From Podargus strigoides (taxonomy: Eukaryota), in the NCBI GenBank assembly GCA_028020825.1, contig CM051638.1:14272861-14336860 (forward strand): a stretch of DNA of 64,000 nt. Reading direction: 5' to 3'. Below, in pieces: positions 1-54,400 of this stretch; position 1 is the first letter of the stretch; each line of letters opens with the position of its first letter. Under the pieces are notes generated by a model. That model was given only the letters and a program-made list of their open reading frames with translations. It was not told the origin of the DNA and searched no databases. The position numbers were made by a program, and so were the translations under genes.

Positions 1-1059
1 CAGGCCAGCAGAGATTCTGAGAGGCAAAGGGAGGCACAGGGCCTTAGGAACCTGCTAAAAGGGCCTCTGCCTCCCAAAGGGTATGCACGGCACCAGACAC
101 CACTGCTTTCTTTACGCAACCGTGATAACAAGACAAGAGGAAAAGGCCTCAAGTTGTGCCAGGGGAGGTTTAGCTTGGATATCGGGAAAAGCGTCTTCAC
201 AGAAAGAGTGGCCAGAGTGCATCCTCTTTCTGCCTGTGCCGCCACAAGACAGAGCCTTTCCACTTGGAGCACTGCTGTGGCTGGAGGAAACATGCCCTCC
301 TCTCCCTCACAGCAGTGGCACTGGAACACCTGCAGAAAGAGGGTGGCACCGACTGCGAGTGGCACCGGTATGGGCATGGAGCATAGCGGGACACATCCTC
401 GCACGGTGGTGACCAGAAGCAGCTTGCAAAGGTGCTGGAAAGCAGCATGGCAGAAAAGGCCCTGGGGGTGCTGGTGGGCACCAAGTTGTCCAGGAGCCAG
501 CACGGTGCCCTTGCCCAGGGGCGCTGGTGAGCGGCACCCTGGGCTGCACTGGGCAAAGCGTTGCCAGCAGCTGGAGGGAGGTGACCCTTCCTCTCTGCTC
601 AGCGCTGGCGAGGCCATGCCTGCAGTGCTGTGCCCAGCTCTGGGCTCCCCAGTACGAGAGAGCCATGGGCATACTGGGGAGAGCCCCCAGTGCCTCCCCG
701 CCCCCCCACCGCCTGTGACGTCACAATGGTGGGGTCGCTAGGGATGTATTGACCTCGTGCTGCCCTGACAATGGCCACAGTGCCTGCAGGGATGTTGACG
801 TGCGTGCACGGAGAGAGTCCAGCTCTTGCCCACTGTACGGCACTAGGACCCCCTTAGGCAACTTTGCTTGGGTGGGTTCAGCACTACTGTGAGTTTTACC
901 CGAGTTTTGGAGATAAAGGTTCCGTCTGCATCGTCGGGATGGACCAGGGGAACTGCTCCCACGGCTCCAGGTAGGCTTCCAGCACAGCTTGGGGACACAC
1001 TGCACAGTTGGGCCCTGCAGCTGCCACCTTTCTCATGCCCGATGCCCTCTTCTCTGCAG

Positions 1060-1209
1060 GGAGGACTCTGGCCCCATGCAGCAGGGCATGCCTGTCCTGG
1101 CATCCCCTGAGCCCGTGCTCCGCCACGGCGTGCGGGTGACCCAGGGCCATAAGACAAAGAAGAGGGAACTCCTCCTCTTCTGTGATGCCTTGGTCGTCGC
1201 CAAGCCCAA
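1060..1209 (+). CDS. Coding exon of a divergent PH/GRAM-like domain (..VLRHGVRVTQGHKTKKRELLLFCDALVVAKPK), probably the N-terminal part of the GRAMD1-like gene
   Basis: Acceptor ctctgcAG|G at 1058-1059 and donor CCCAA|gtaagag at 1210; open frame; phase continues into the next exon. Confidence 0.5.
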
Positions 1210-1407
1210 GTAAGAGCCGCAGACCCCAGCCTCCTTTCCTCCCCGGCCCTGGCCCTGACACCAGGGCAGGGACACCCACGGAGCAGCCCCAGGCCCCCAG
1301 CACCTCGCTGCAGGATGCATCCCTGGCCATGCCTGTGGCAGGCGGATGCGAGGGCAGCCAGCGGGCTCGGCCACCTCCAGGTCACTCCGTGCCGCTCCTC
1401 TCTGCAG

Positions 1408-1560
1408 GTTTTGCACCCCGCGCCCACGGCTCTGCCTGGCCCTGGGCGTGCTGCAGGTGCTGACCGTCAGGAAGGGGCCAGCTAGTGACGTCCCCGAGGA
1501 GGAGGAAGGAAACTCCCTAGCCCTCATCTGGCCCGGCGGCTCCTGTATCATCACTTTCGG
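1408..1560 (+). CDS. PH/GRAM-like domain exon (FCTPRPRLCLALGVLQVLTVRKG...SLALIWPGGSCIITFG)
   Basis: Acceptor tctgcAG at 1406-1407 and donor TTCGG|gtgagt at 1561; phase-consistent with the previous exon. Confidence 0.5.
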
Positions 1561-1730
1561 GTGAGTCTGGGTGCCACGTCCCAGGGCTGGCCAGCGCCTC
1601 TGTGCTGCCCCACGGGGCTTGGCCCTGCCTCTCTGGCCGTCCCCACGGGGTAGGGCTGTGCTGGCATCCCCCTCTGCCTGCAGGATGGGGCGCAGTGGGC
1701 ACTCAGGGTGTTTCTCCTCTCTTTCTGCAG

Positions 1731-1772
1731 CTCCTGGGAGGTGAAGGAGCTCTGGCTCAGCGCGCTCCGTGG
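1731..1772 (+). CDS. Short exon encoding SWEVKELWLSALRG; compare the KELW motif after the GRAM domain of GRAMD1B
   Basis: Acceptor ctttctgcAG at 1729-1730 and donor CGTGG|gtaagc at 1773. Confidence 0.45.
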
Positions 1773-1959
1773 GTAAGCCATGCCTGGCAGTGCAGCCTGG
1801 GGGGGCTGTGCTCAGGTCATGAGGGGATGCTCCAGGGGTAGCCATACCATGCAGGAACACTGCTTCTGAGCTGGGGAGAGCTGTCCCCACGGCTGTGGCC
1901 AGCTGAAAAGGTGGCTTGGGCCTCACACAGCTCTTTCTCTGCCCATTCCCCATGCACAG

Positions 1960-2044
1960 GCCAGCAGAAGGAGTTCAGGGAGCCCAAGTGACCCAGCTGC
2001 CCTCCATCGAGCTCCTGCTGCAGGAGCTGAGCAGCCGCAATGCT
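1960..2044 (+). CDS. Exon encoding PAEGVQGAQVTQLPSIELLLQELSSRNA
   Basis: Acceptor catgcacAG at 1958-1959 and donor AATGCT|gtgagt at 2045; ends in phase 0. Confidence 0.45.
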
Positions 2045-2141
2045 GTGAGTGTCCCTCCTGTCCCCGCTCTGCCCCACATGCTGCTCCAGCCCAGCATGAG
2101 ATGCATCGCTTCTCACCTTCTGCTCCTTTCCCCTTGCCCAG

Positions 2142-2835
2142 GTGACGACACTGCACACCAGCAGCCTGGAGAGGCTCTTCGAGGGCCAGGGAAGGGTCGG
2201 CATCCCTGGGAGTGCAATCTCAGCAGTCCCCAACGCCCAGACACCGCCAGGGGCTGATGCAGCTCGCCGGGGACCCTTTCTGCTGCGGGGCTGCTTGCTG
2301 AGCGCAGCGCATTTCTTGCAGGCTGGTGCAGAGCAGCGGCCACCTCCCGTCCCGTCTGGCGGCCAAGGTGGATGTGGTGGTGCGGTGGGTGAGTTTGGAG
2401 CAGATGGGGGGCAGGGTGGCCCTTCTCTCCTCCTCTGGCGGGCGGGCACTCGTGCTGCTCTGGGGCTGCTGCTGCCCTTCCCGCAGGGCACGTGCATCCC
2501 CATGGCTCTGCGGCAGGGGAGAGCTGAGCCCCGGGGCCCCTCGTTCCCAAACGACGCCTCTCCCTTGCTTTCCGCAGTGGGGGGACAGCCTTGAGAGTGT
2601 TGGGGAGCGCTTGCTTGGGGGTTCTCATGCAGGGGGTGTTTGTCTTTGTTTTCCTTTGCAGCCAGTGGGACCTGCAAGAAGAGGACGGGGCCGCCCTGGC
2701 CCTTTGTGCGACGAGGAACCTCGGCCGCTGCAGAGGTTCCCGGGCCATGGGTCTCTGGCTGCAGGGGGGCTCCCTTTGGCCAGCCCCTGGCAGCGCCCTG
2801 CAGCCAGGACGGCACGCTGCCCCAGCCCACCCAGG
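2142..2835 (+). other. GC-rich probable coding linker region containing an unresolved number of exons. Candidates are 2142-?, 2321-2387 and 2662-2835, the last with an excellent donor CAG|gtaagc at 2836.
   Basis: Acceptors at 2140 and 2320 and donors at about 2388 and 2836. All three frames are open because of GC richness, so the frame and boundaries are uncertain. The exon ending at 2835 is phase-0 compatible with the exon starting at 7972. Confidence 0.25.
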
Positions 2836-5800
2836 TAAGCCAGCCTGGCCAGGGTGTCCCCATCCCTCTGGCTCCCTGGGAGAGCTGGTGTCCCCAGCAG
2901 ACGGACTGTGGGTGGGTATGGTCTCATGCTTCTGGCTTTCTTCGTTGTTCCTGGAACTGGAAATAACTCTGTTAGACCCCGCTTTGAAGCTCACTTTTTT
3001 CCAGTGACATCTTCTTTTTAATCCTACTTTCGCTTGACTAATTATACAAACCAGCCTGGACCTAGTTCCTCTGTCCATCTTTCTTTTTGATCCTAACTAA
3101 CTGATTGCTATCTAATGCTGCTTTTTCATTTTGTCCTTACAAGAAAGCCAGAGTTGGCACAGTGTAAGCACTCCAGTTTCTCTTGTCCCTGGGTGAATAC
3201 GGGCTGGGTACCTGGGTGGGGGGGAAGGTGCAAAGGGGCTTTGCAGTGGCTCTGGGGCATACTGACCATTTCCAAGAAGAGGAGATGGAAATGGCTCAGA
3301 ACTGGCAAAGGAGGACAGACATCCAGATGGAAAGGATGCCAGAGAGAGAGAGCAAGAGCTTTGTCTTTTCAGTCACTCTTCTGATGATTTGCACATCTTG
3401 TACCTTCTGGTTGCCCAGCAGAGTTGGTCTTGACAAACTCTGTGGTGACAAACGAGCTGCCACCGTGCAAACCCTTTGCATCTCTCAGGGTGGTGTGGGG
3501 TGAGAGAGGAATTACTTTCTTTTGACCACACAGAAACAGGAACCATCTTTTGCTTCTGCCTTGGTCTTATTTTCGTTCCGCAAGCGCAAGTGGCCGTGTT
3601 TTTGGTACAAAGCTGGTGGTGTGCAAATTTCCACAGCTCTTGTCACCTTTGCACGGTTGAAGCCCCAGCCCTTGAGCGCTCTAAAGCAGATACCAGCAGT
3701 ACCTTGATTTTGCGGGCAAATGCAGCAGCCAGTCCATGTTCAGCAGCAGTTCCTACCTCCCTGCAGCCTAAGACATCAAAAGCAGGGATTTTGGCTGGTA
3801 CGGTGTGGTCAGATTTCAGAGAGTCATGAGAGGCAGAGTTATTTACTTGCTCTGTGTAATCAGCCCCAGGATAGCAGCAAGGTCAGGAAAAGATGTGATC
3901 TCAGACGCAGAGAGAAATATAGAGGCAATGGCATTAAGAATGGAGTACAAACCATGGTAGGCCAAACTGGAGGAGAAGTGGCAGATAAAGGATCGTGGAG
4001 TGAGGCAGCTTGGGCAGATGCACAGCCCCAGCCAGGCTGCTGCAAGACCGTGAAGCTGTGGCCATGGCTAAAGGTGACTTTTGCTATTATGCAAGAGCTG
4101 CTTCTGACAGCAGCTGCTGAGATCCGTCCCCTGCTGCATGATGCTTTGCTGTGCTCTGTTTCTGTGGGTCTCTTGTGTTTTTGTGTCCTCTCTATCTTAC
4201 CTTTCTCTTCTCTTGGTTTTCCTCCACGTGTTGTCAGCATGAGACAGGACAGTACATCCGGAGAGTAAGCGCTGGCTGCATTTTTTGTGGTTTCTTCCCC
4301 AATTCTTTTCCTTAAGAAAACAAAAACCAAAACCATGTTCTAGTTAGGAGAGACATTCTGGCCAGATAAAAGCAGCAATGTGGAAATACAGCTCAGCCAC
4401 AAACTCCAGGAAGGCAGGCAGTCCCACTTGGCAGGATTACTACCATTAAAAATTTGCTAATGCCTCTCCTTGATAGAGTTTCCCTTCTTTGCCCACTCCT
4501 TCCAGGCAGGGTTTTTGTGGCGTTTGGACCATTCTGATTCTTCTCTCCCTTTCCCCACGGAGAGCAGCTGTGGGAATGAATCTGTGGAGGCTCCCCCTTC
4601 ACAAAGTCTTACCATTTCCTTTACTCGCTTTCCCCGACTTTGATTTTACGTAGACTGCACTGCGCTCACGGCAGACACCCTCCGCATTGTTCTGGGTGCC
4701 AGGCACTGTACAAACACAAATCAAAAATATAGTCCTTCCCTCAAAGAGCACACGGTCCTCGAAGATCCCCAGAGCATCGGGGGTCAGCATGCCAGTTTCC
4801 TCAGATGACTTCAGTTTTTGCTGCTTCTAGCTGGTCTTTTTGTCCTTGTAGCACTGCATCCCTCTTTGCCAGTTGGAACCCTTCCTTTTCCCTCTCCTGG
4901 ATTCCTTTTTCTCTGCTTTTCCTTAAGGTGCTACCCACTTCTCTCACCTCGTGTATTCTCCTTCTGATCCTACCAGAGCTTTTTGGGATTGACATCCCTG
5001 CCAGGCTGAGAAGTGGGAGAAAAAGGGGTGAAGCAAGGCCAGGGATTGGTTTGGCAGGAGACCTGCCCTTTCTTGGTCTTGGTGTGCTTTCTCTGCGTTG
5101 CTTTCCAGAGGACAAATGCAAACTGGTCCAGGGGCACTGTGAGATTTAGAAAAGAACAACAGGTTGAGAATAAACATCCTCAGCCTTATAGAACTTGCAG
5201 ACCTCATTAAAATGAGAGACACATTGGATATATTTTGCTGCCAAGGCTAAAAGCTGTCTCCTCTGCTCTTCTCCTTCTCTCTGGGTGTTGGGTTAAGGGC
5301 TCCATTTCTGAGCGTGGAGGAGCTCTCAGGTTTTTTTCTTGAGGTGGGTGTACAGTTGAGGCACTGAGCCTACCAAGTCCACCATGTGTTTTTCTGCCTA
5401 CTTCTCTCTCAGTTGAGCTGTTGATCCTTCGACTGTTGATCCTTCTACTCCCTGACTGTTCCTAAACTAGGCTGTATGTCTCCAATCTTCCGCAGCATTT
5501 CCAACTGCCACTCTATAGCAAGGCTTGCTTCTGCAAGTTGCCTCCTGTGGTGCCTGTGCTGGTAGACACCAGGCATCAGGAGAATCTGCAGATTCCCAGA
5601 AAAGAGAGAAGGTGATCTTGAAAAGTTAGAGCAAACACAGTTGACACCAGGGACGAGGTAAGAGTTGTATCTGTCCACAGGGCTTTCAGTTTACCGTTTA
5701 GAGCCCAAGGGCCGCCCCACTCTGTGCTCCTTTCTGTTGTGTTTATCTACACACATCCTTTCACTTGCCTTCCCTTTTGCAACCATGCTCTTTTTTTTTT

Positions 5801-7971
5801 TCTTCTTACAGCTTCTCCCTGTAACTGGCCTGAAGTACCCCCTCTCCACCTATATGCAGGATAGCCTCAGAGTGATTAGTGTGGGGGGGAAAAAATGATA
5901 GTGCAGAGACACTGATTGTCTGTTTCAGGTGTTCTTAAATACTACTAGAAACATTTGCCATCCTAGTAAGTCTGAAAAGATCAACAGGAGCATGGTTGTA
6001 CCCACTTGTCTTTGGGAGAGCAAAGTCTGCACTGAGGATTGCATGGAGTGGGACAGGAGCCCAGCACCTGCAGTTCTGCAAACAAATGCTGTGCGCACAG
6101 GGCAGCTTTGAGCCTGGCTTGCAAGAGGTGAAAGTCTCAGACATAAATCCTGTCCAGTGCAAGTCGGTAGCCATGTAAAGGACAGAGCTCTCGGTTTTCC
6201 TTTGGGCAAGCTGTGGTAAAAGCCAGTGCACTAAGAATTAGGAGAAGGTGGCCGAGGATCCATGGTGCATTGTGGTGCTGCGAAGGGCCTTTCTTTGTGG
6301 AGACCTTTGAGCAACGCTTGCAGCTTCTTAAGAACAACGTCAAGGGATCACAAGACTGAACACTGTGCGCAGTCAGCCTTTGCTGGCCTCAGTGTGCTGT
6401 CTTTTTTTCTGGCAGTACCCTCTTGGAGACCTTGTAGATACCAGAGTGGAGGGGGAAAGTCAGCTGTTGAAAAGAGTAAAATGTTCCCTATAAAGACCAA
6501 GAGAGAGGTGCTGCATCATCTTAGGGAAAACATCAGGAGCAGCGTTCCAATGGGTGGCAGCCTGAGTCTGAGTCAGCCACAGCAATCACGTAAATGGGGT
6601 TTATTGCAAAAACCCAGGCCTGATGATGAATAAGCAAGGTGTTGAACAGCCTTTTTCTCTCTAAATCAGTGCAGTCGTCTTCTTTTAAGTTCCAGTAACC
6701 ATTTGGTCAAACTGTCTCTGGAACAATGTGAAATCATTGTCTTTCAGGTCTTTTTCACGGGCCGTTCCCTTCAGACTGTCCATGGGTTTGGATGTATGGA
6801 TTGCCAGGCGTGGTCACAGTTACTGTGATGTAGAGGCACTAAATTAGAAGTGAGCTTTTGGTGCAGGCTCATGTGATGATGAATTCAAATCCACTTTCCA
6901 CCCCAGATGGATGGCAATTACTTTGAAGCCTCTTCCTCTGCTGTTCATTCACTTCTAAAAAGGGAAAGAAAAAAAAATAAAAGAGTAAGAACCCCCAAGA
7001 GACCAGACCGGGTTTAGAAGAAAGGCTGTGGGACAGGTGGCCAGTTTCTTTGCTGACATTAATCAGCATAGCAGTCCTGCTGCCAGGGAGTCTAAACTCT
7101 GCTACGCAAGCAGGGAATGTATTCTGTTCTTTTCCAGCAGTTTGACTGTTGTGTCCAGAAGCAGTGTAAATCTTCCCTAAAGAGTTAGGAGCAAGCCCCT
7201 CAGCCATGCAAATTGAACCCAAAGCTCAGAGCTGATTATCATCTCTGCTCCCACCTCCTTTCCCATCCTGTCTACTTGTGCCAGGGAGTCTTGGGCTTGG
7301 GCTCTTGCTGGAGCCCATCTTTGGCTGAGATCTTTTCCAGATGTTCAGGCTAGAAGTTTGGTAAGTAAAATTCATATTTCTGTTGCCTGCTGGTGAGCAG
7401 ACTTGATGCAGAAGTAAGATACTTTCCTTTGGGCCCATCGGGCTGGAATTTTTTAGGGAGGTGATGTCTGTGTTTGCTTCTTTGATTTGATGGCATTTGA
7501 AAATTTTGTAAGGCTAGTGCCAGATGAAGTTCACCTTCCTCCCACCCCTGCGACCCCCTCCCTCCCGACTTCTCAAACAGAAGCTCCCTTCTATAATCAC
7601 TGAGTTTTGGGGCCCCTTCTGTGAGGCTCTGAGGCGTGCTCACCTTTCTGCTTTGGGTCTGCAGAGCAGACCTCCTTCAGGTATAAGCTCAGATTTTCTT
7701 AGCTCTACAGTTCTTCTTCAGGGGCAAAACTAGTATTGTTTGTGTGCTTCTCTGAACAAAGGAAAAGCCTTGCGTGTGCCCCAAGCTTGAACTGTATGTA
7801 GTTCTTTGAGGGGAGGTGGTCTAAGATGCCAGTTGTGTTTTACAAGCACCATATGGCAACCTTCCTCCTCTCTATATTATTTAAGTTGCAGACATGTTGA
7901 GGCCAGATGTTCAAAGATAGGAAAACTGGCCCACAGATGTAAAGTTTTCCAAAATATTCTCTAATTTCCAG

Positions 7972-8200
7972 GTGCCGGTCTCGCCCTCATTATGCTCGCT
8001 CTCTGCATCATTTGATGGAGTGGTACTAGAAGAGGAGGAGGCAGTGGCAGAGAGTCCTGTGGAAAAGGATCTTGGCACTGCAAATATCATGGAAGAGAAG
8101 ATGGAGATCATGGGCCCCGTGAACTCCCCTTCCCTAGATTGTGATGACAAGGATGATATTCCTGCAGAGCTCAATGACCCGTCAGAGAGCTGTGATGAAG
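7972..8200 (+). CDS. GRAMD1/Aster-family exon in the pre-VASt acidic linker (SFDGVVLEEEE...IMEEKMEIMGPVNSPSLDCDDKDDIPAELNDPSESCDEG)
   Basis: Acceptor tttccAG at 7970-7971 and donor GATGAAG|gtatgt at 8201; strong similarity to the remembered GRAMD1B segment PVSFDGLPLEEE...NIMGEKIEMIAPVNSPSLDFNDNEDIPTELSDSSDTHDEG. Confidence 0.7.
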
Positions 8201-8558
8201 GTATGTGGGGAAGGGCTGTTCTATCGTTGTTGTTTCCAGCCTTCCCCCAACCCTTCCAGTGGGGGACTAGAGCAGCAGCAAATGTTGAATTGCTTTTCTG
8301 GAGCCTAAGAGTTCAGAAGATGCAAAGAATTCCCATTCTGGGCCACGAAGGCGAATGTGTGGGGTGTTTGGAAGGAGGTGCCTCAAATAACCTCAGTAGT
8401 TAATGACCCCTTCTGACGTTCCAACTGTTGACCTGGGATCAGTGGAGGAAAGGGTTAGAAGTTCCTTCTTTGGGTTCCTTCTTCACAAAGTGAAGCACTA
8501 AGGTCCTGGTACTGTGAGAGCATTTGATAATGGCACTTACGGGTCTGTTTCCCCACAG

Positions 8559-8702
8559 GAGAAGTCCAAGCCTTTTACGAGGACCTGAAGGGCCATCAGT
8601 TAGTGAATAAAGTGTTCAAGTTCAGCATGGACAAACTGTACAACTTGCTTTTCACGGCCTCCCAGTTCCAGAGGGACTTCATGGAACAGCGGCGGATGTC
8701 TG
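8559..8702 (+). CDS. VASt domain exon (EVQAFYEDLKGHQLVNKVFKFSMDKLYNLLFTASQFQRDFMEQRRMS)
   Basis: Acceptor ccccacAG at 8557-8558 and donor TG|gtgagc at 8703; close match to the remembered GRAMD1B segment EVQAFYEDLSGRQYVNEVFNFSVDKLYDLLFTNSPFQRDFMEQRRFS. Confidence 0.8.
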
Positions 8703-9366
8703 GTGAGCTGCTGCTGGCAAAGCCCGGTCCCTGACGGCGGCTGTGTTCCCTGTGAGGTGCAGAGGGAAGGTCTCAGCACACGCCTTAGAGGTGTAACTTT
8801 GCCTGATGGTGGAGAGATTGGGTAATATTCTGAGCAGCTCTTGGGACAGCTGTGGTCTGTCCTGACAGTAATCAAAAGCACACAGAACCAGCCTTGTTTG
8901 GCTGTCTCGTTTTATTTTCTAAGAGCTAGATCTAAGTTTATTGAAGAAGCAGACTCTCTTATTTTTTGACATCAGCTATGGCCTGATCCTGTGTTCAAAG
9001 CTTAAGAGCGTGAGGCAAAAGTTCTTCTGGCTCCACACCAGCCACCGGCACAGACTGCAGTTGACAATCCAAAGAGAATGTCCCTTGGCGTGCAACGTCC
9101 TCCTTTCCCTCTAACTCTAGGTTTGCTGAAGGAGACAGGTCCCCAGCCTCTCCCCCTTTCCCTGCACTTGAAAGAAGGAAAGAATTCACATTTAGTGCAG
9201 GAGGCCTTTCTTTCACGCTCAGTTGAGCTCTAGTGCTTCTGCTGCAGCCAAGCTCTCCAAGGGGAAGGAAATACTGTCCTGAGCTTTGTTCTATGGTTAT
9301 GCCTTTCCCTGGGGAACTGACCTGAGATCCCTCTCCAATTACTCAAATCTTGTTTTGTCCTCTCAG

Positions 9367-9485
9367 GTATTGTCTTTCATCCCTGGAAGAAGGAAGAAGA
9401 TGGCAATCAGACCAGAGTGATATCGTATATCATAGCCCTCACCCACCCTCTGGCCCCCGAAACTGTCACTGTGACGGAGACGCAG
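9367..9485 (+). CDS. VASt domain exon (GIVFHPWKKEEDGNQTRVISYIIALTHPLAPETVTVTETQ)
   Basis: Acceptor tctcAG at 9365-9366 and donor CAG|gtatga at 9486; compare GRAMD1B IIFHPWKKEENGNQSRVILYTITLTNPLAPKTATVRETQ. Confidence 0.8.
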
Positions 9486-10472
9486 GTATGAGAAAGGGGA
9501 GCAGGGGTGTAATGCCTTGCAGAAACAGACCTGGGATTTATTTTCTTGTCTCGGGCATGCTGCTTGGCATGTTTTCCTTCTGCCTGTCCGTTTTCCTGTA
9601 CACATTTGTCTCGTATTAACTTGCTGCCCAGTGTCACTGCAAATGCAAATAGCTAATCTTGCACTCGCCCTGGGTTGCATTGCAAGGAAAGGACCGTAAA
9701 GTTCCCAGCAAAAGCAGTTGCTGGTGTTTGTTGAGCTGCGGTTAGTCCAGCAGACGTTATTCGTGAGCAGGGCACGAGAAAGGCAGATACTGTCTGGCCA
9801 GTCCTTCTGACAGCTCGACATAGAGAAGTCCGGGCTTTTTACCTGTTTAGAAAGGTAAAAAATGGGAGCATCTGCAAAGCCCTGAAAAGAGGTAAGAAAA
9901 GCCATGCTTTTTGCATATGGATGCGCAGTTCACTGTGTCTGTGCCCTTTGTGAGGCTCGTTCTAGGGCAAAGAAAGAAGCAGGTGAGAAGCGCTTGAGAG
10001 AAGTAATTGGCATGTGTTTGTGGTGTTTAGAATGACAGAACAATCTGTGCTAGAAAGGACCTCTGCTCAAAGCAGGGCCACCTTGGATTTTAGATCAGGT
10101 TTCTCCCTGACCAGCCAGACATCAGTTCAATGAGAAGAGGTAACGCTTGCGAAGGTCCCAAAGAACTGGTCCTCACGTGGCAGGGTACATAACTACGTCT
10201 CTGGAACCAAATGCTGGAGGTTGAGCTGCTGGAACCGAATGCCCCTTTGAAGGATGCCCTTGGGAAACATCTGAGTGAAACACTTGGCTTCCTCAAGTGT
10301 ATGCCTTCCCTTGAGCTGTTCGTGGAAAAAGTGCAGAGCTGGGGCTGGGGCATGGGTGTGGTCTCTTACCTGTGGTAGAGCTGTTTTTGTAAAGTGCCAG
10401 TCAAGGTGCCGATCTGTCAGAGCCCTGCTCTGACCAGACTAATAGTTGCCTTGCATGCTGTCTTCTATGCAG

Positions 10473-10615
10473 ACAATGTACCAAGCCAGCCAAGAAAGCA
10501 AGTGCTGCGTCATAGATGCAGAGCTGGTAGCTCACGACATCCCTTACCACGAATATTTCTCTCTCATTAACCGCTACACGCTGACTCGTGTTGCCAGAAA
10601 CGAAAGCCGGCTCAG
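10473..10615 (+). CDS. VASt domain exon ([48 protein letters not shown])
   Basis: Acceptor ctatgcAG at 10471-10472 and donor CTCAG|gtacac at 10616; compare GRAMD1B [48 protein letters not shown]. Confidence 0.8.
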
Positions 10616-11200
10616 GTACACGTCTTGTGGGATAAAGAGCTTTCCTGACGACCAAAAGTCACCTTTGGGTGGGAGTTTGCCTGTGTGGTGTTGCAGAAGG
10701 GGCTGGGGAGAAGTTAGGCTTATTTCTTTGTCTGTTGCTAGAACAGTCCTCTCATGGAGAGGGTTTACAGACTTTTCTTGCCCCCTTCTTGGAAGCAGTG
10801 GTTTGCAGGGCCAGTTGCCACACACAGGCAACTGCCTGTGCTAAGCCACAGGACATACTTCCGGGGACTGTGTCTCTGAGGTGCACGTGGGTGGCCAAGC
10901 AGAGGCACTGGGTACCAGGCAAAGCTCTAGGCTTTTGTGTTTAGCTTCGATCATTAATCTGAATGTCTGCCTGCCCCATGGCTGAAGGTCTCGGGCGAGG
11001 CTCTCTTGAGGCTTCCCTGCTACTGCCTTTGGAAAGACTTTTCATGCAGTGCTTCTCCTCGAGAAACACAAAGGGCTGAGACCATTCCAGAAAGAACTGT
11101 GTGCCTGACTGTTTCTCAGATATACATTGTCAAGGGGTTGTGAATTGACCTTGCCTCGAGGAAGCAAACTTGGGAGAATGACTTTCCTTTCTTCACACAG

Positions 11201-11304
11201 GGTTTCTACAGAGTTACGTTGCAGGCAACGGCTTTTGGGGCTGATGAAACCCTTCATCGAGAAGAATTTTTTGAGCATCCCAGAAGATCATTTCCGTTGT
11301 TTGG
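11201..11304 (+). CDS. VASt domain C-terminal exon (VSTELRCRQRLLGLMKPFIEKNFLSIPEDHFRCL)
   Basis: Acceptor cacacAG at 11199-11200 and donor TTGG|gtaaga at 11305. Confidence 0.75.
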
Positions 11305-11718
11305 GTAAGAGTGGCAATGACTGGAGCTGTGGCAATGACCCACAAACAGGGGCACCTTCCTTAGTTCATGCATGCCTCCCTGCAAGTGGGCAGCATGACA
11401 GTGTCATACCTGCTGCCTGCTGGGGATGAGACCTGGGAGTGGCTTATGAAAGGGGCCAGCCAAAGGTACTGCCCGAGCGTTAGTAGCACCTGCTGGAATT
11501 AATCAAGTCATCAAATCCTGCTCTCTGGCAGGAGCGCAGGCAGTCTGGGGTCAGAATTTGGCCAAAGGTGTGAGGCATCTGCAGTGTGTCCTCTGGCACG
11601 GGCCCCTCAGTCCCTGCCAACTTCTTTGGTCCAGCAGCTGTGCCATTAGAGGGCTTGAGTCTGCCTCTGCAAAGCCAGTGCCACACCTGATAAATGCTTT
11701 GCCTTGCTGTCTCTACAG

Positions 11719-11922
11719 AGAGGGGACTGACCAGACTTGAGAGCACATACCCTGCTGAGGTGCACGGAGAGTCCCCCAAAGGGAAAGGGAGCGAGCAATC
11801 GCCCGTGTGCCGGAGGAAGCAGGCCCGTGCCCAGCTGCTGATGCCACCCTCGGAGGAGGTGCCGAGTCCCGTGACCACCCCCACGCATGAGGGAGCTGCA
11901 CACAGACCCAATCAGGTGGCAG
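11719..11922 (+). CDS. Linker exon (ERGLTRLESTYPAEVHGESPKGKG...LMPPSEEVPSPVTTPTHEGAAHRPNQVA)
   Basis: Acceptor ctctacAG at 11717-11718 and donor GCAG|gtaagg at 11923; compare GRAMD1B ESELAKTESTYLAEMHRQSPKEK...LEEVMSPVTTPTDEDVGHR. Confidence 0.7.
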
Positions 11923-12144
11923 GTAAGGAACTGCAGAGCCCTCGCACTTGGGGATGCAGAGCTGAGTACCTCTGGAGGAAAACTGGAGCTTTGCTCGTGG
12001 CAGGTTAATGGGGAGAGGGCCCAGGTCTCTCCAGGGCAGGGAGGACGTGTTCCGCTGGAGTGAGATGGAGGGGTGGGGAGATGGAAAGCAGTTGTCCTCC
12101 CCATCAGGCAGCATTTCCTAGCCTAAATGCATCTGTCTCCTCAG

Positions 12145-12235
12145 CTCCCACTCGGCCACAGCATGTCCCTGAGGAGAGCCCCCGTGGCTTCCACCTGCAC
12201 AGCGTGTCCAAGCTGCTCCTCGTCATCGGTTTTGT
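12145..12235 (+). CDS. Exon entering the transmembrane segment (PTRPQHVPEESPRGFHLHSVSKLLLVIGFV)
   Basis: Acceptor ctcctcAG at 12143-12144 and donor TTTGT|gtaagt at 12236; compare GRAMD1B HIPEDTPNGFHLQSVSKLLLVISCV. Confidence 0.7.
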
Positions 12236-14442
12236 GTAAGTGAGATTGATTTATTTTTGTTTGCTTTCCTTCAGTCGGCCTTTAACAGCTTTGGTCCTTT
12301 CATGTTTCTGGTGTTCGGTGCTCCCCTACGCCCGTTTTTTCTCTCCCACACTTCTCTCTGGTCCCAAACTTGGCACAGAACAGAGGAGAGAAAAGCAGTG
12401 ACAGGCAGTAATGAATGAATGAAAATTGTTTGCTGTTTTGTCTGGCTTGGTCGTCCCAGCTTTTGCCAGCACTTAGCTGGTCACTGATTTGGCTCTCTAG
12501 GTTCTGGATCCTTTTTCATCAAATTGTATGTCGTTCCCCGTCAGTTTCGACCTTGTTTTAACCAAACACAGGCTTCCCAGAGCTGCGTGGTTTGGGGAGG
12601 CCTAAATGCAGGTCAGCTGTACTGTCTGGGACACAGGCAACACTGACAGTGGCAAGCAGGGCAAGGGGCAGCTGTGCAAGGAGGCAATACTTAGAAGAAA
12701 TCCAGCAAGTAGAAAGTCTTTTTTATTTCAGAGACTCCGTTGAGAGATTTTTCAATGACATCTGAAAACTGTGAGCTTTTTTCAATTTAAAAGAAGTCGT
12801 TTAATGTAATCTGCTGACAAACCAGCTGTTAGAATGAAAGATGGCCACGCAAAGCTCTCTGGGAGTCACGGTGCTGTCGCAGCAGGGCTCAGTATATGTG
12901 AGGAGTCTGTCTGTGGGTTACTTCTTTCCTCTGGTCGAGCAAAAGCTGTTCAGGTCTGGTCCTGGGCAGGGATTTGGATGAGAAATACCACCTCAGAGGG
13001 AAGCTGGACCATTTAGAGACGAGTTCTGCAAAATAAGGGGAGGAACACGTGAGAGATTGGCATGATTTAGTGCTGCAGTGGTTGCTGGGCAGGTGCTGTG
13101 AATCGGTGCAGTCTAAAGGCGCAGTCCAGATAGGTGGGTTTTGTCATTGTTTCTGGAACTGGACACATCCTGTTGACCCTGGAGGAACAGGAGAACTTGG
13201 GCACATTTTTTTATTAAGCTCCAGCCACCTTTGAGTGAGGTGGGAATAAGCTGTGTAGTCAGGTTTCTATTCCAATGGAGCTCCTTCCTGCATTTCCTTT
13301 TCCCAGTGGGCATAAAGACTGCAGAGGTTGACAGCAGCAACCCAGCAGGTTGCTGCAATGCTGAGCTAGGTAATGCAAAGTAATGTAGGGATGAGAAGAT
13401 AGCCTCGTGCTATCTTCTGCATCTAGACAGGTGAGATGCAATTAAGACGTTCAGCAGGAAGGCAGAAAAGCTTTAGGACAATCTCTCCTGGCAGTCTGCT
13501 AGCTTAGAGTGTTCCTAGAGCCCTCCATAATGTTTTCAGGATACTCTTCTGGCCAGCTGCCTTCTGCCTGGCTGAACTGGGGGACAGTGAGCTATTCTTG
13601 CAGCCAGACAGCACCACTGTTGAGAGCCAGGCACGAGGCTGTGGTTTTGGAATCTTTTCCCCGAGCGTGGCTGCTGGGAGGAGCGGGAATGCCCACGCGC
13701 AGCGGTGTGGGGCCAGGGGCGCAGTGCAGTGTCTGGGCAAAGTGCTGGTTTGCAGGGTGGCCTGGGGTGGTGTTCCCATCACTGGGTGCAGCAGGAGTGG
13801 GCAAGGCTGGATGCGTGCAGGCTGCCACATGCATTTCTGTGCCATGACAGTCTCCTGCATGGGTGTGCTTTGGGCTTGTCCACCCAGCTTTTGCTGAGTG
13901 AATTTCACCATGACTTGCAGGGACACGGTTATTTGTCTGTCCTGCTTGCCTCTCTTCCCACTGTTCCTTTCTGCCCCGCTCCCCTCCCCAAATATCTTCT
14001 ACACTGTCTGTGAGCCTTCTCTGCTCAGCCCAGTTTCTCCTATTCTCTGTCAGTCTCTCTCTAACCTGCAGCTACTCCGTCTTTTCTCTTCCTGCTCCCA
14101 TTAGGATCCGTTCCAGGTGCTGTCTCTCTCTTTTTTTACCTCTTTACTCTCCTGTTTCCCTCCCTTTCTCTGCATTCAGCATCCACTCATGCAACCTGTT
14201 CTGTCTCATCTGTCATCCCTGGCTTTCTGTCTGTCTGTCCTCCTTGCTCCCACATTTCTGCCCCCAGGTGAAGTTTGAGTTCTGATCACCTGGCCCTTAC
14301 TCACATTAAATTCCTCCTCACCTACAGCATGGACCTGGCTCCCAGACACCTTCTTAAAGCCTTGGGTGTTTTCCCAGGTGTGATTGGCAGGCAGTGGGAT
14401 ATGAAATGCCCCTAGAAAACGGACTGTTTTCATTATTTCCAG

Positions 14443-14550
14443 TGTGGTGCTGCTGGTCCCTCTCAATATGATGCAGTTCTACCAACTCCAGATGCTGGAA
14501 TATTCTACGCGGACATGCACGGCCTGGCAGGGCTTGCGGCTACAGGAAAG
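14443..14550 (+). CDS. Transmembrane and juxtamembrane exon (VVLLVPLNMMQFYQLQMLEYSTRTCTAWQGLRLQER)
   Basis: Acceptor tttccAG at 14441-14442 and donor GAAAG|gtactg at 14551; compare GRAMD1B LVLLVILNMMLFYKLWMLEYTTQTLTAWQGLRLQER. Confidence 0.7.
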
Positions 14551-15690
14551 GTACTGTCACACCTGCTTTGTCTCTGCCTCTTCTTGCATGTTTCCTAGAG
14601 TTGTTTGAGGCTTTCCCAGAACACCAAAGCCCTGGGCTCTTGTCTATGGTTAGCCAGCACTCTGGGCTAAAGCGTAGCAGTTAGTATCTCACCCAGGGCT
14701 CCCTGCCCAGCGGGGAAGGGAAATTGGGGAAAAAAGAGGAAAAAGCCCGGGAGCTGACGTTTGAACAAACTTAACAGAATAACAGGACTGAGGCAAGAAC
14801 CAACATAAAGCCTAAATGGTTCTACTCAGCCTAGTTCTCGATAGCAAGAGCAGGAACAGAGCACCACCACCAAGGAGCCTCAGGGAGAGGAGGAGGAACC
14901 CCCCCCTCACTGAGCTCCCTCCTTTTACCATGAGCATGCTGAGGTGGTGTGGGATGCAGCTGTGAGTCAGCTGCCTTGAGTGGAACTCTCAGCTGACTCG
15001 GGGCTGCTCATGGCTGCCTGCATGGCTGGCCCATGGGCTGTGCCTGGGAACCAGGACAGCTCTCTTGTAGATTCCTTACTCTTTGTGTCAAGGAGATGAA
15101 GCAGGTAGGTAGCTGAAGCTGTGGGGCCATCAGCATTTCCAGATCTGAAACTGCTGAGCAGCTGCAGCAGAAGACAGTGAGTTAAGGCAACCCCTGCTTC
15201 TTCCCAGCATCCTGTGAACGGAGGATGCTGTGCGAATTAGTGTTTTGCAGTCCTGGGCCAAGGTGGTCACCTCCCCTCCTTTGATGGCTCAACTTCCCTC
15301 TGTACGAAAAGCAGGGTCTTAGAAAGAACCCTCTGTACTGAGAGGAGAGTTTGGGCCTGTGACACACAATCAGCTTTTGGACAAGTGTGTTGAAGGGTGT
15401 GTGCGTCCAGATGTCAGCAAGTTGTTGGAGTGTGGGAGGCAGAGAGAGATTCCTAGCCCAGCTCCAGCTCCTCTGACCACTGGCACCTGCCCGAGGCCCC
15501 ATCCCATGGCTCCGGGCAGCCAGTCCCAGTGATCCTCCCATCAGCACCCTCAGTGCTTGTATCTGTCCTGATTCTGCTCCACTCAGCAGGCTCCAGCCTT
15601 GTTCTGGAGGGTTAACTGGGCCTGAAGGGAGGGGATCCACTGGGACTGCAGTTTCCCTGGATTCACTCTTGCTGGTGTTGTGTCTGACAG

Positions 15691-15808
15691 GTTCCCCCAG
15701 TCTCAGACAAAATACGCCCAGTTACTGGAATCTCAGCAGAAGTATCATGACTTGGAGCTACAAAACCAGCGTGAGATCATCAGATCTTTAGTGGTGCTTC
15801 TAGAGCAG
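15691..15808 (+). CDS. C-terminal helical exon (FPQSQTKYAQLLESQQKYHDLELQNQREIIRSLVVLLEQ)
   Basis: Acceptor ctgacAG at 15689-15690 and donor GAGCAG|gtgaga at 15809; compare GRAMD1B LPQSQTEWAQLLESQQKYHDTELQKWREIIKSSVMLLDQ. Confidence 0.7.
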
Positions 15809-16528
15809 GTGAGACCGCAGGGCCAGTTCGTGCTGTGACTCGAGGGCCACTGTGTTCTCCCAGCCACCCACTCGCAATCCTTCAGCCTTAACTAGTTCCA
15901 CTGTAGTCCATCAGGTGCGTCACTTCTGCTGCCGTCTCCTTTAGCTCCGTCTCTGACACAGCGGTGGGCAGCAGGTCCCAAGGGCTATTTGCAGGGTACT
16001 GCAGCTTCTCTGTCCCCTCATGGGGGTCCACGCACGTCAAGGAGAGAATCCTACAGGGCCAAACCCCTTCTGTTAGCACATTTTATAGCTAGTCTCTGGC
16101 ATCCCAGTTTGGAAAGCCAACTCTTGTGCCTCGGCCCTGGATTCATACCCAGTTTGTGTGGATGACAGGGACCCTCAATAGCACAAAGCCAGGGGCTTCA
16201 GTATCCGCTGCCTAAAAAGCTGGTTGTACACCAGGCTGCCTAGAACAGAATTTGTAACTGAAAGCTGCTCTCCCTACAGAGAGAGCTGATCACCCCATAC
16301 CTGATACTGCTTGCCCCTTCTCTGTTAGCTTGGAGAACGGTCTCTCCCGGGCTCCCATCTTCTCAGCCCACTTTTGTACATCCCAGCCCTGACGCGCCAC
16401 TCCCCAAACCCAGATGACTGCAGTATCAATGCTTTACACGGAAGAAGGAGGCACTGAGGGGGAAGGCAATCCTGAACCACTCTCACCTCTAGGGTGGCAT
16501 CACAGCGGAGCAATTTCTTGTCTTGCAG

Positions 16529-16660
16529 ATGAAAGATTTACTGATAAATCTTCAGAATGGCGTCGGGTCCCAGGACTTTGGGTCAGAACCAGAGGAGGAA
16601 CGGAAACGTTTGCACCAACAGGCAGCAGTGCAGGAGGCCAGAGGCCCCTCTGCAGTATGA
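16529..16660 (+). CDS. Terminal coding exon (MKDLLINLQNGVGSQDFGSEPEEERKRLHQQAAVQEARGPSAV*) with TGA stop at 16658-16660
   Basis: Acceptor tcttgcAG at 16527-16528; compare GRAMD1B MKDSLINLQNGIRSRDYTSESEEKRNRYH; ATTAAA-like polyadenylation motif about 30 nt downstream. Confidence 0.65.
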   Translation: MKDLLINLQNGVGSQDFGSEPEEERKRLHQQAAVQEARGPSAV

Positions 16661-17019
16661 GTAACTAGGTTATCTAAATTAATATATTAAAAATATACGT
16701 ACAGACCATAAATATGTGTATCATGTACTGATTTTCAGAGAAAGACAAAAAGCCTCCGTATGGGGGGGAAGGACTGCCCTCCAACACTGGCTGAAATGGA
16801 GCGTCTCAGGGGGAGCGTGGTGTGTGCGTGTGTGGCAGGGCTGTGCTCTCCCAGCACTGAGGTGTGCTTAGGGGGTGCACCTGAGTGTGCTCCCCCGGGC
16901 CCGTGCACCACTCTGCTGTCATATTCCTGGCTGTTTGTCTGTCTCTTCTGTTCTTGTTGTTTCAAAGGGAAGCATCAGAGTGAGTTTCCCCCCCCCCGTG
17001 CGTGCAGGACCCCGGCTGA

Positions 17020-17757
17020 CTAAGTCATGTTTGACCACCCTTATTGCCTTCTGTGAGGTAATAACTCGGTGGATAGATAATGGTAGAGCGGTAGATGTGG
17101 TTTATCTTGATTTCAGTAAAGCATTTGACACTGTCTCCCACAGCATCCTTGCTGTGGCCAATGGCATCCTGGGGTGTATTAGAAAGGGGGTGGTTAGTAG
17201 GTCAAGAGAGGTTCTCCTTCCCCTCTATTCTGCCTTGGTGAGGCCACATCTGGAGTAGTGTGTCCAGTTCTGGGCCCCCCAGTTCAAGAAGGACAGGGAA
17301 CTGCTTGAGAGAGTCCAGCATAGAGCCACAAAGATGATGGAGTGGAACATCTCCCTTCTGAGGAAAGGCTGAGGGAGCTGGGTCTCTTTAGCTTGGAGAA
17401 GAGGAGACTGAGGGGTGACCTCATTAATGTTTATAAATATGTCAAGGGTGAGTGTCATGAGGATGGAGCCAGGCTCTTCTCAGTGACATCCAATGATAGG
17501 ACAAGGGGCAATGGGTGCAAGCTGGAACATAGGAGGTTCCACATAAATGTGAGGAAGAATTTCTTCCCAGTGAGGGTAACAGAGCACTGGCACAGGCTGC
17601 CCAGAGAGGTTGTGGAGTCTCCTCCTCTGGAGACATTCAAACCCACCTGGACATGTTCCTGTGTGACCTGACCTAGGTGTTCCTGCTCTGGCAGGGGGAT
17701 TGGACTAGATGATCTTTTGAGGTCCCTTCCAATCCCTGACATTCTGTGATTCTGTGA
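17020..17757 (+). mobile_element. CR1 LINE 3' fragment (ORF2 C-terminus plus 3' UTR ending in (ATTCTGTG)n). It is about 98% identical to 52088-53330 but carries an internal deletion of about 0.5 kb.
   Basis: Segments such as aagtcatgtttgaccaaccttattgccttctgtgaggtaataactcggtggatagat match the large CR1 copy. ORF pieces are FDTVSH..., [63 protein letters not shown]. Confidence 0.85.
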
Positions 17758-18299
17758 CTGTGTTTATCTGCACGTACAGAGGGGACACTGACAACTTTCT
17801 CACCTTGCTGGCTCCAGGGCAGAGAGGTTTTGGCAGTTGCCGTCAGCAAGCCCTTACCAAACAGTTCCGCGCTTGGAGAGGAGGCCTCCAGGAGAACGGC
17901 TGTCGGTCTGTAGAGAGCAGATCTCACTGGCAATCACCCTCTGTACTTGTTGGAGCAGAAATACAATTTGCTGCCACGCTGGCCAGCCTGGTTCAGAGAG
18001 CAAAGCCCAGAATGTAAACGAGCCGCAATGCTTTCTCCAAACACTAGTTTGCCACCTCCTGTTCTTGGTACTGCATTAGTAGTGAAGGAGGTGGTGGGGA
18101 AGGGAGTATGTGCCTCCAAGGTGCGTGGGTGGAGGGGAGCCACACTGCAGAAAGCACACTTCCATCCCTTTGACTTGTCCCCTTTACATTTGCTGTACTT
18201 CTCTGCTCTCCATGTGCTTGGGCCCCTGCCATTAAGCCCTCCCTGCGCTGAAGAGCTACATCGGTGCTGAAAGGGCTGCTGCCTGTGCAGCTTCTCACG

Positions 18300-18420
18300 A
18301 GAGGGGGAGTACTGCGACCTGAAAAGACAACCCAAACTAGTATTTATTTGCAAGGAGGAAAGCCAAAAGGCAAACTCATCGCCTCCTTCTGAAGGACTGT
18401 GGGAACCAGCCATGTGTCAA
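18300..18420 (-). mobile_element. Short ERV-derived fragment homologous to the pol/env junction of the provirus at 24340-29944 (shared gaaagccaaaaggcaaactcatc..cctcctt; peptide GGDEFAFWLS)
   Basis: About 85 bp of similarity to 25185-25260; no LTRs detected. Confidence 0.3.
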
Positions 18421-19633
18421 CCTGAATTCAGGGCTCGGGGTGCAGAGCCCAGCACTTCAGCCAAACCCCACTGTGACTGGTTGGGATGCAGGGTGCTTGT
18501 TTGAACTTTCCCGTCGCACCCAGCCAGGTAGCTTAGGTGACGTGCGAGGCCCTCAAGCTCCACCTTGTTCCACACCAGGATTTTTCCACCTTCTGGGTGG
18601 CAGGAGGGAGTCACCCCTGTATTCCCTGGATCCAAAGGGTGCAGTTCTAGCTCGTCTGTTGTCTCTGGCTCCAACAGGTGCTGAAAGAGCAGGAAAAATA
18701 AAGATGAATAACTGGCCTTTGTATCTCAGTACCACCAACTCTCATCCGCACAGCTGGGTGACAAAGTCTGAGGAAAACCCTCACAAGCTCCTGCTCCTGC
18801 ATTCCACTTAGGCAAAGGCAATGTATGTGGCAGTAACCTGCTGATTTCTCCCAACCTGCCTACAATTTTTGTGACCGAGTGCTAAACACAACAAGTCCCA
18901 CAGAAGACGACTCACATTAGAAGGAGAGTGGATGAAGACAGATTATCCAAAAGACATTTAAGAGTGTGAAAGCAAGGTAGCAGTGGGAAAAACATGCCTC
19001 AGCAACTTGAGAGAACTGTGTATTGATGGCTATTTATTTAATTTAATGCTGCTGCCTACTGTAGTGCTCCCTGACGTGTTTCCAGGGAGGCTGCTGAAAT
19101 GGTTACTGTATAATGAAACGGGGTGCTGTTGCCTGGGAAGGGCATTCTGTGGCTCATTGTCCTGGCTCGGCTAGGGCAGGGTTAATTTCCCCAGCAGCTG
19201 GGAGGGAGCCCCCGCCGGGCTCTTCCATACCCGGTGAGGTCCCGTCCCGGTCCAGGCGCAGAGTTCATACAGATTTATTCAGATTTGCAAGCATGCAACG
19301 TGTTACTAAACTACATTAACACCTTCTCTCCTAAACCAAACGAGTATCTATGTTTGCTTTCACGAACCTAGAATCTTTCTTTTCAGGACTCCTCAAACAA
19401 GCAGTGTCTTTGAATTCTGAAATGACACAACTATTAAGAAAGTCCACATTGTGCAAGAAAGCAGCAGGTATGTTTTTCAACTTGGACTAAAAAAGGAAAG
19501 AGAAAAACAAAAACCGTTCACTGAACAGCAGATTAGCAGTAATGTTCCTCGTGAATCGGCAAGAGTGCCTGATGCTGAATATCTAACAGCAAATGCTGAA
19601 TTGGGGTTTAATCTTTTAAGGGTTTATTGGAGA

Positions 19634-24339: not shown

Positions 24340-24713
24340 TGAGGAGAAAAAACTGGACTCCGCACCATTCAGTGTGAATCAAACTGAAGACGTTTTATTT
24401 ACCTTGTCTGTCGCTTTTATACAATCTTACTTTCCCTAGACCCGGTCACGCATCATTTAATTGGTTAAAAGTCTCTAGCACAAGGTAAACATACAGCTCA
24501 GTTCAGTTCCCGTTGGTTCTTAAGTTCTTCTCCCGCAGTGTCCAATTGGTCACTCTTACCTGCTCACACCTGCATTCCTTAGGGAAGCAGTCATTGCTCT
24601 TTCTTATTTTTTCTTCCTTTGAAGTAGCTTCTAGAATGCAGCTGCGTACCTAGGCCAACATCCCGTATGGCTGGTTCACTATATGGTCATTTTCTTTTAC
24701 ATACATTCCTACA
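24340..24713 (-). repeat. 3' LTR of the class-II ERV
   Basis: About 98% identical to 29571-29944; the PPT is immediately adjacent at 24714-24740. Confidence 0.9.
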
Positions 24714-26559: not shown

Positions 26560-26591
26560 ATCAATAATTAATATGTCCCAGTTTTTTGGAA

Positions 26592-27553: not shown

Positions 27554-27556
27554 GGG

Positions 27557-54388: not shown

Positions 54389-54400
54389 TCTTTCTACTTT

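Follow-up and report, generated by a model that had tools for sequence, protein, structure and literature searches.

A predicted PH-VASt mosaic gene in Podargus strigoides, built from TAGAP-like and GRAMD1B (Aster-B) DNA

The DNA analysed here, referred to as the window, is a stretch of 64,000 nucleotides from the tawny frogmouth, Podargus strigoides (assembly GCA_028020825.1, contig CM051638.1, positions 14,272,861 to 14,336,860 of the forward strand), and all coordinates below are positions within it. Its plus strand carries eight exons corresponding to the 5′ part of bird TAGAP-like genes, followed by ten exons derived from GRAMD1B, which encodes Aster-B. That is, a PH-type domain stands upstream of a VASt domain, a transmembrane (TM) helix and an Aster C-terminal tail. 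The locus is already in GenBank, labelled 'protein Aster-B-like', and one of the deposited models (KAM6317654, our P0125) matches the window at 100% across all of its exons. In Aster proteins the GRAM sensor recruits the protein to cholesterol- and phosphatidylserine-rich membranes. GRAMD1 proteins combine this PH-like, lipid-binding GRAM head with a sterol-binding VASt domain and an anchor in the endoplasmic reticulum (ER), and form heteromeric complexes (PMC9586981). A sequence-only reading of the same DNA had proposed that a fourth GRAMD1 paralog persisted in this lineage next to RGL1, its GRAM domain having been remodelled into another PH-like sequence.

The eight upstream exons, mapped from their bird relatives, are the following.

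939-970, plus strand: TAGAP-like exon 1, with the ATG at 939; encodes MDQGNCSHGS (other birds, MGQxNCC)
1060-1209, plus strand: TAGAP-like exon 2, where the ARHGAP20-type PH domain begins
1408-1560, plus strand: TAGAP-like exon 3, PH domain
1731-1772, plus strand: TAGAP-like exon 4, in which the PH domain ends (SWEVKELWLSALR)
1960-2044, plus strand: TAGAP-like exon 5
2142-2195, plus strand: TAGAP-like exon 6
2322-2388, plus strand: TAGAP-like exon 7
2662-2834, plus strand: TAGAP-like exon 8, encoding the first ~20 RhoGAP residues; ends in phase 0, with the donor CAG|GTAAGC

All eight have canonical GT-AG sites, and together they form a 252-codon frame that contains no stop. The sequence-only reading had rightly recognized PH-like exons on this strand, but missed exon 1. 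It had also taken the last exon to be 2302-2835 in frame 1, which is corrected here to 2662-2834 in frame 3; in that frame the TAA at 2836, which it had considered as a terminator, is not a stop. The PH peptide that it quoted reads CIITFGSWEVKELW once spliced, with one S fewer. Matched to Pfam PF22286 (RHG20_PH, the PH domain of ARHGAP20), the peptide as first noted gives E=6e-12, and the 715-residue model described below gives E=4e-12 and 46.6 bits (cut-off 27.7) against the full profile (positions 4-93 of 93). These exons are therefore not a diverged GRAM domain, as had been supposed, but make up the 5′ half of a TAGAP-like gene that is unrelated and has a PH domain of the ARHGAP20 type. A search of PDB sequences with the PH half gave no match. 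The RhoGAP catalytic domain and its arginine finger are missing: no match to TAGAP-like exons 9-12, which encode them, was found anywhere in the 64-kb window, including downstream of the inserted block, and the 715-residue model has no RhoGAP match in Pfam.

The protein search with these exons returned five relatives, of which three match in full, at 62-64% identity (Bubo scandiacus, P0126, and two loci of Limosa lapponica, P0127 and P0128), and two are partial (Columba livia, P0129, and one ENA contig). The named relatives are annotated as T-cell activation RhoGAP (TAGAP), and consist of an MGQxNCC start, a PH domain and then a RhoGAP domain. The MGQxNCC N-terminus is likely, from its sequence, a myristoylation/palmitoylation motif. 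In godwit, owl and pigeon the next exon, with the arginine finger (DLLALLHxHGPSTEGIFR), lies ~150-200 bp after exon 8, exons 9-12 fall within ~1.7 kb, and the complete gene occupies ~3.8 kb or less. Unlike these genes, the Podargus version is cut in intron 8, has no RhoGAP catalytic exons and begins with MDQGNCS.

In Bubo scandiacus (OZ243498.1, ~65.3 Mb; L002/L003) the complete TAGAP-like gene is repeated in tandem every 9.86 kb, and 42 kb hold at least four units (at 132, 9557, 19418 and 29278); the aligned unit has a TGA in exon 4. The Limosa copies lie on two contigs.

The Aster-B-derived part comprises the features below.

7972-8200, plus strand: first Aster-B-derived exon; starts in phase 0, acceptor AG at 7970-7971
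8559-8702, 9367-9485, 10473-10615 and 11201-11304, plus strand: four exons of the VASt domain, with Pfam and solved-structure matches
11719-11922 and 12145-12235, plus strand: two exons of the linker after VASt and the first part of the TM helix
14443-14550, 15691-15808 and 16529-16657, plus strand: three exons of the remaining TM helix and the C-terminal tail
16658-16660, plus strand: TGA stop

With the concatenated VASt-to-tail exons as query, the top protein match is 'protein Aster-B-like [Podargus strigoides]' at 92%; identity is 72% to bird GRAMD1B, 69% to crocodilians, 66-67% to turtles and 61-65% to mammals, in keeping with the earlier estimate of about 65%. The product differs by 27% of its amino acids from bird GRAMD1B, which is otherwise near-invariant. 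The Pfam VASt match has E=3.8e-32 over profile positions 2-150 of 152, and the sequence aligns ungapped with the solved structures of Aster-C (6GN5, 8AXW) and Aster-A (6GQF), with E=4e-43 to 3e-39. These matches settle the fold, and the homology to GRAMD1 that had been noticed for the exons at 7972-16660 stands. By the same matches the domain belongs to the sterol-binding VASt/ASTER type of the GRAMD1/Aster family, and is predicted to bind sterol. The C-terminal TM helix of the family is recognizable as well (SVSKLLLVIGFVVVLLVPL; mean Kyte-Doolittle hydropathy 2.52 over 19 residues vs 3.08 in the parent) and would anchor the protein in the ER. The GRAM domain shared by Aster-A, -B and -C is lacking: Pfam finds no PF02893 in the 715-residue model or in any of the six Podargus models described below, and tblastn of bird GRAMD1B residues 1-360 (N-terminus, GRAM and linker) gave no match in the window.

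The VASt, TM and tail regions are homologous to GRAMD1B exon for exon, and the ten exon lengths are those of the parent except in the first and the last. In the first, the canonical acceptor no longer exists; its place is taken by an AG lying 39 nt upstream (7970-7971), which also exists in the passerine GRAMD1B intron and gives 13 extra in-frame codons. In the last, the parental stop (after KRKRFH) is lost, and 14 codons of readthrough, ending in RKRLHQQAAVQEARGPSAV, precede a new stop in all six copies. Further differences from GRAMD1B are that the Podargus sequence is multi-copy and has neither the N-terminal region nor the GRAM domain, their exons being uncopied or deleted.

The two ancestries meet at a junction that can be placed almost to the base. 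Three features mark the rearrangements.

~2917-2922: rearrangement junction, inside TAGAP-like intron 8 (junction sequence GGGTGGGTATGGTCTCATGC)
3144-3163, plus strand: degenerate GRAMD1B micro-exon (KSQSWYN), with its acceptor off by 1 nt and 20 nt instead of 21
7630/7661: internal deletion junction; Lamprotornis L004 6150 to ~13800 is gone

Upstream of the junction, window 425-2906 is colinear with the TAGAP-like loci of other birds over exons 1-8, their introns and ~500 bp of upstream sequence, at 74-83% identity; by locus the values are 75-77% (Limosa L001), 77-80% (Bubo L002), 75-79% (Columba L007) and 74-78% (Limosa L008). With each of these loci the homology stops between 2859 and 2906, short of the next exon there. 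Downstream, window 2923-19162 (plus strand) is colinear with the GRAMD1B loci of passerines, i.e., Malurus L005 42343-70610 and Lamprotornis L004 128-26439, through exons, introns and ~2.5 kb past the stop codon; in those loci the copied block begins ~200 bp before the KSQSWYN micro-exon. At the junction itself, homology to TAGAP-like intron 8 ends at ~2906-2917, homology to the GRAMD1B intron starts at ~2921-2923, and the GC content falls from ~63-66% to 48%. Within the GRAMD1B block, the ~7.6 kb lost at 7630/7661 held exactly six exons, four for GRAM and two for the linker. We regard it as nearly certain that the locus originated in the Podargus lineage as a mosaic, by DNA-level segmental duplication involving GRAMD1B and a TAGAP-like gene.

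The two exon series can be read as one gene. Exon 8 ends at 2834 in phase 0 and the exon at 7972 starts in phase 0, as the sequence-only reading had noted for this pair, and the joined frame of 18 exons (8 + 10) is open for 715 codons. It has the marks of a chimeric gene: two parents on one strand, an intronic breakpoint, compatible phases and an open reading frame (ORF). In Pfam, the 715-residue model has RHG20_PH at residues 32-122 and VASt at 343-488; the profile search that had been suggested for the concatenated protein thus recovers VASt, finds no GRAM, and identifies the PH domain as PF22286. What survives of the earlier proposal, as an untested prediction from sequence, is a PH-type head before VASt in a single frame, with an origin in exon shuffling between a TAGAP-like gene and GRAMD1B.

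As we reconstruct this origin, ~16 kb of the GRAMD1B locus, from the intron before the GRAM exons to ~2.5 kb past the stop, was copied and joined, within intron 8 of the TAGAP-like gene, to its eight promoter-proximal exons. The RhoGAP catalytic exons were lost, the 7.6-kb deletion took the GRAM exons, and the unit was then amplified. A 5′-truncated copy would need a promoter and a start codon, and candidates for both lie 7 kb upstream on the same strand. Transcription would proceed from the TAGAP-like 5′ end, and exon 8, with a strong donor (2835) whose natural partner is gone, would splice across a hybrid 5.1-kb intron to the acceptor at 7971, the next good one with coding potential. The product, of 715 amino acids, would consist of an ARHGAP20-type PH domain, a linker, VASt, a single TM helix as its ER anchor and the C-terminal tail of the Asters; like those proteins, it would be expected to bind sterol at the ER, but without the GRAM sensor. 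We rate this reading as a whole, i.e., a mosaic gene with a fusion product, at about even chances. That the PH-VASt fusion is the main product, which involves predicted transcription, splicing from 2834 to 7972, translation and function, we would put somewhat below even.

Six Podargus models fall in one 90% cluster: four consecutive gene models on a 14.68-Mb contig (KAM6317651-4) and two on another contig, of 567 kb (KAM6307893-4). They share a 462-residue core of identical length, in which they differ at 5-25 positions, and 93 of 436 comparable positions are fixed differences from the parent; therefore, most of the divergence predates amplification. Annotation reports intact copies only, and this set is biased accordingly. 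The six models have four different 5′ ends (two pairs share one), none with a homolog. Some of the other models contain fragments that translate DNA resembling window 174-383, 3280-3826 and 16930-18017, with few changes, which suggests a repeat unit reaching at least from ~174 to ~18000 that would include the TAGAP-like 5′ part. Self-BLAST revealed no second copy of the unit within the window. Between copies, a rough hand comparison of the genuine coding core with the flanks that the GenBank models translate spuriously gave ~7 amino-acid differences, where ~10 were expected over 272 residues; this fits an omega (ratio of nonsynonymous to synonymous change) near 1, but the sample is much too small to be used.

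A repeat of ~600 bp, a CR1/LINE-like reverse-transcriptase fragment, is found at 17156-17757 and again at 52714-53320 (96.9% identity). Some GenBank Aster-B-like models splice in the copy at 17156-17757, which gives them a false C-terminal extension.

The state of the frame argues that the mosaic is maintained. In the Aster exons there are 0 indels in 1308 nt; the introns have 101 gap-openings for 683 mismatches (0.148 each), a rate from which 10-30 exon indels would be expected. In neutral simulations run to the observed 118 amino-acid changes, just 0.3% were still stop-free. The Aster part has all nine donors and its nine retained acceptors intact; the one acceptor that it lost is replaced in frame. 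For the TAGAP part, whose statistics also include the time before fusion, the Podargus-specific exon indels are two, of 3 and 9 nt, whereas eight of nine in the introns are not multiples of three; the probability of remaining stop-free is ~0.09. The frame disruption and lost splice sites of an unprocessed pseudogene are not seen: the 18 exons are free of stops and the splice dinucleotides in use are intact. Because there are no stops, no indels in the Aster exons and no broken splice dinucleotides, we consider it probable that the locus is maintained as a coding gene. We read this, together with the rates given below, as selection preserving the frame, with most residues able to change freely or even driven to do so.

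A number of observations weigh against a functional fusion. The rates are the first of these. Aster-part dN and dS (nonsynonymous and synonymous divergence) relative to passerine GRAMD1B are 0.145 and 0.42-0.58. When a third bird transcript (L006) is added to make the comparison three-way, the paralog branch has a dN of 0.14-0.16 and a dS of 0.20-0.26, i.e., a near-neutral ratio, omega, of 0.55-0.77, vs 0.02-0.07 on the two parental GRAMD1B branches. Substitutions on the paralog branch affect 12.9%, 12.5% and 14.8% of codon positions 1, 2 and 3, respectively, and the nucleotide identity of Aster exons (0.81) is close to that of introns (0.80). The TAGAP part has an omega of 0.96 on the Podargus branch vs 0.51 in the owl and 0.62 in the godwit, with 10.2% change in exons vs 8.9% in introns; the TAGAP-like family looks multi-copy and fast-evolving in birds generally, with omega 0.5-0.6. 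In exons 7972-16657, A/T-to-G/C changes outpace the reverse (rates of 0.139 vs 0.103; equilibrium GC 0.575); this weak-to-strong bias hints at GC-biased gene conversion in the array, and could inflate the rate of protein change non-adaptively. Particular residues have also been lost, namely conserved tryptophans in the VASt domain and tail, and Gly2 and one Cys of the MGQxNCC N-terminus.

The gene structure raises further doubts. Compatible phases alone would be expected by chance in one case out of three, and the micro-exon at 3144-3163 would break the frame if it were spliced in. The TAGAP-like exons appear in none of the six GenBank models, and their presence in every array unit is inferred from the model fragments only. 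The locus is surrounded by a patchwork of damaged or retroposed genes. Finally, we found no transcript or protein evidence of any kind; RNA-derived proteins in Logan match at 72% or less.

Set beside known systems, the fusion resembles hominoid USP6 (from TBC1D3 and USP32) and Drosophila jingwei, which are reportedly lineage-specific chimeric genes that arose by segmental duplication, with demonstrated fusion transcripts and products. In all of these the 5′ part of one gene is combined with the 3′ part of another, through intronic breakpoints and in compatible frames, and the result is lineage-restricted, fast-evolving and amplified; the difference is that in Podargus the fused transcript is a prediction. 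Yeast Lam/Ltc proteins and plant C2-/GRAM-domain proteins likewise place a PH-like or other membrane-targeting head before VASt and a membrane anchor, and two of the plant structures (PDB 9VV9 and 9VV7) were weak matches in the structure-sequence search. Their heads are GRAM-type and ancient, whereas that of Podargus would be a recently shuffled RhoGAP-family PH domain.

It is doubtful, in our judgement, that the locus represents a new class of sterol-transfer protein, in which a GRAM head was swapped for a RhoGAP-family PH domain, with tandem amplification and diversifying selection. We are similarly hesitant about diversifying selection as such, for which the argument is that nonsynonymous change is at least as fast as change in the local introns, with the frame strictly maintained. 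If that reading were true, the locus would amount to a natural experiment in which an ER-anchored lipid-transfer protein is re-targeted. If expressed, it would provide a clean vertebrate case of multi-domain gene birth from two intronic breakpoints, which can be dated and mapped to the base, and the head swap would show the modularity of the head-VASt-anchor design. If silent, it is a warning, as it looks ancient by protein identity alone and is revealed as a young rearranged duplicate by intron-level comparison.

Among the other explanations, the first is that a GRAM-less Aster-B-like gene exists on its own, expressed from a new promoter in DNA derived from the GRAMD1B intron, with the TAGAP-like part being an unrelated, truncated relic. 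The start codon would lie in a new exon further upstream, or would be Met40 of the first Aster exon (window 8089), and the product would be a constitutively ER-resident sterol binder, which could pair or compete with full-length Asters via the TM helix and tail. All six GenBank models are built in this manner. That of KAM6317654 places its 5′ exons as follows.

6086-6172 and 6776-6830, plus strand: 5′ exons of GenBank model KAM6317654, in GRAMD1B-intron-derived DNA; no homolog

The Aster part has preserved its ORF, its exon lengths and its splice sites, which would suit such a gene, as would the near-neutral omega of the TAGAP part and its loss of Gly2; association with other Asters is plausible given that GRAMD1 proteins are reported in heteromeric complexes (PMC9586981). 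However, four 5′ ends without a homolog among six models point to ab initio guesses, and no promoter is evident in the former intron. Nor does this explanation account for the TAGAP-like fragment having kept its ATG, 16 splice dinucleotides, a 252-codon frame and exclusively in-frame indels. We consider both the separate gene and its proposed starts of translation unlikely.

According to the second explanation, the mosaic is dead: both halves would be fragments of unprocessed pseudogenes in a duplication-prone region, and the open frame a leftover favoured by annotation bias. The near-equal rates at the three codon positions, an omega close to 1 and exon identity no higher than intron identity are what this predicts, and the lost tryptophans, the lost canonical acceptor of the first Aster exon and the lack of transcripts on record fit it too, as do the neighbours, namely a stop-containing RGL1-like gene, a retrocopy and endogenous retroviruses (ERVs). 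The rarity of stop-free outcomes in the neutral simulation and the complete lack of exon indels in the Aster part argue against it, as do the intact donors and acceptors and the in-frame replacement of the lost acceptor. It would also have to explain how six copies that differ at 5-25 residues all retain a core of identical length. On balance we judge it rather unlikely.

The age of the locus was assessed with a neighbour-joining tree (428 columns, 300 bootstraps). In it the copies group together with 100% support, on a long branch nested within bird GRAMD1B; 99.7% of the replicates recover a clade of birds plus copies, and 0.3% a clade of birds without them. Consistent with this, the protein distance of the copy drops stepwise from shark to birds. 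Aligned intron identity to GRAMD1B is ~0.80, compared with 0.79-0.84 for introns of TAGAP-like orthologs between bird orders. Since intron homology is kept, an ancient paralog is excluded, and from these comparisons the locus is a young GRAMD1B-derived duplicate. A fourth ohnolog of the two rounds of genome duplication (2R) would fall outside the GRAMD1B clade, have no intron homology and occur in several vertebrate lineages; by contrast, the protein search found nothing above 72% identity in other species, and the copy occurs only in Podargus strigoides among annotated proteins. Hence, although identity to mammalian GRAMD1B is only 61-65% and the neighbourhood differs from that of GRAMD1B, we give practically no credence to an ancient fourth GRAMD1 paralog beside RGL1 with a remodelled GRAM domain, in view of the 16-kb intron-level colinearity, the nesting among birds, the mapped deletion of the GRAM exons, the assignment of the PH exons to a TAGAP-like gene that has RhoGAP exons attached in other birds, and the absence of a comparable protein from any other species. 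The sequence-only reading had itself named a placement inside a GRAMD1 clade with conserved synteny as decisive against a fourth paralog; the placement is as it specified, but the synteny of the parental locus is not conserved.

Its view that this is not GRAMD1B itself was correct, in that we find a distinct GRAMD1B-derived copy in a different neighbourhood. An ortholog would be single-copy, at the conserved locus and under strong purifying selection, such as gives the parent an omega of 0.02; none of this applies to the copy. A rearranged GRAMD1B ortholog was considered and rejected on account of copy number, foreign flanks and the 27% protein divergence. In passerines GRAMD1B is followed by a V-set gene, and the Podargus copy is flanked by TAGAP-like and RGL1-like sequence. 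A canonical Podargus GRAMD1B was not found in ten bird GRAMD1B clusters, and its presence is assumed. The literature search returned nothing on the frogmouth locus.

Two further genes lie downstream of the mosaic.

19634-20659, minus strand: CAB39/MO25 retrocopy, intronless, with an intact 341-residue ORF (Pfam Mo25 E=3e-137, full profile)
50051 down to 21933, minus strand: RGL1-like gene (Pfam RasGEF and RA), tail-to-tail with the Aster-like gene

The retrocopy sits between the GRAMD1B-derived block and the RGL1-like gene. The tail-to-tail arrangement with an RGL1-like gene on the minus strand is as had been described, but it lies in a damaged patchwork region and not in a clean RGL1 locus. 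The best named matches of the RGL1-like gene are all RGL1, at 71-77% identity (fragments of other birds). The Gln codon of other birds is replaced at 33446-33448 by an in-frame TAG (KFI*WFKRQ), and the terminal exon and the N-terminal exons were not found in the window; the gene may be a damaged duplicate rather than a functional RGL1. No RGL1 sequence was found in the 10-kb flanks of the TAGAP-like loci of Limosa (two loci), Bubo and Columba.

The remainder of the window contains repetitive elements. One ERV-like element (24340-29951, minus strand) has 381-bp long terminal repeats that are 97.9% identical (24340-24720 and 29571-29951) and a 618-residue gag ORF, and another (53867-59260, minus strand) has long open frames for gag (620 residues) and pol (998 residues). 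A tandem repeat at 43540-44256 lies in an intron of the RGL1-like gene; its period is 54 bp, and its ~13 copies are 97-99% identical.

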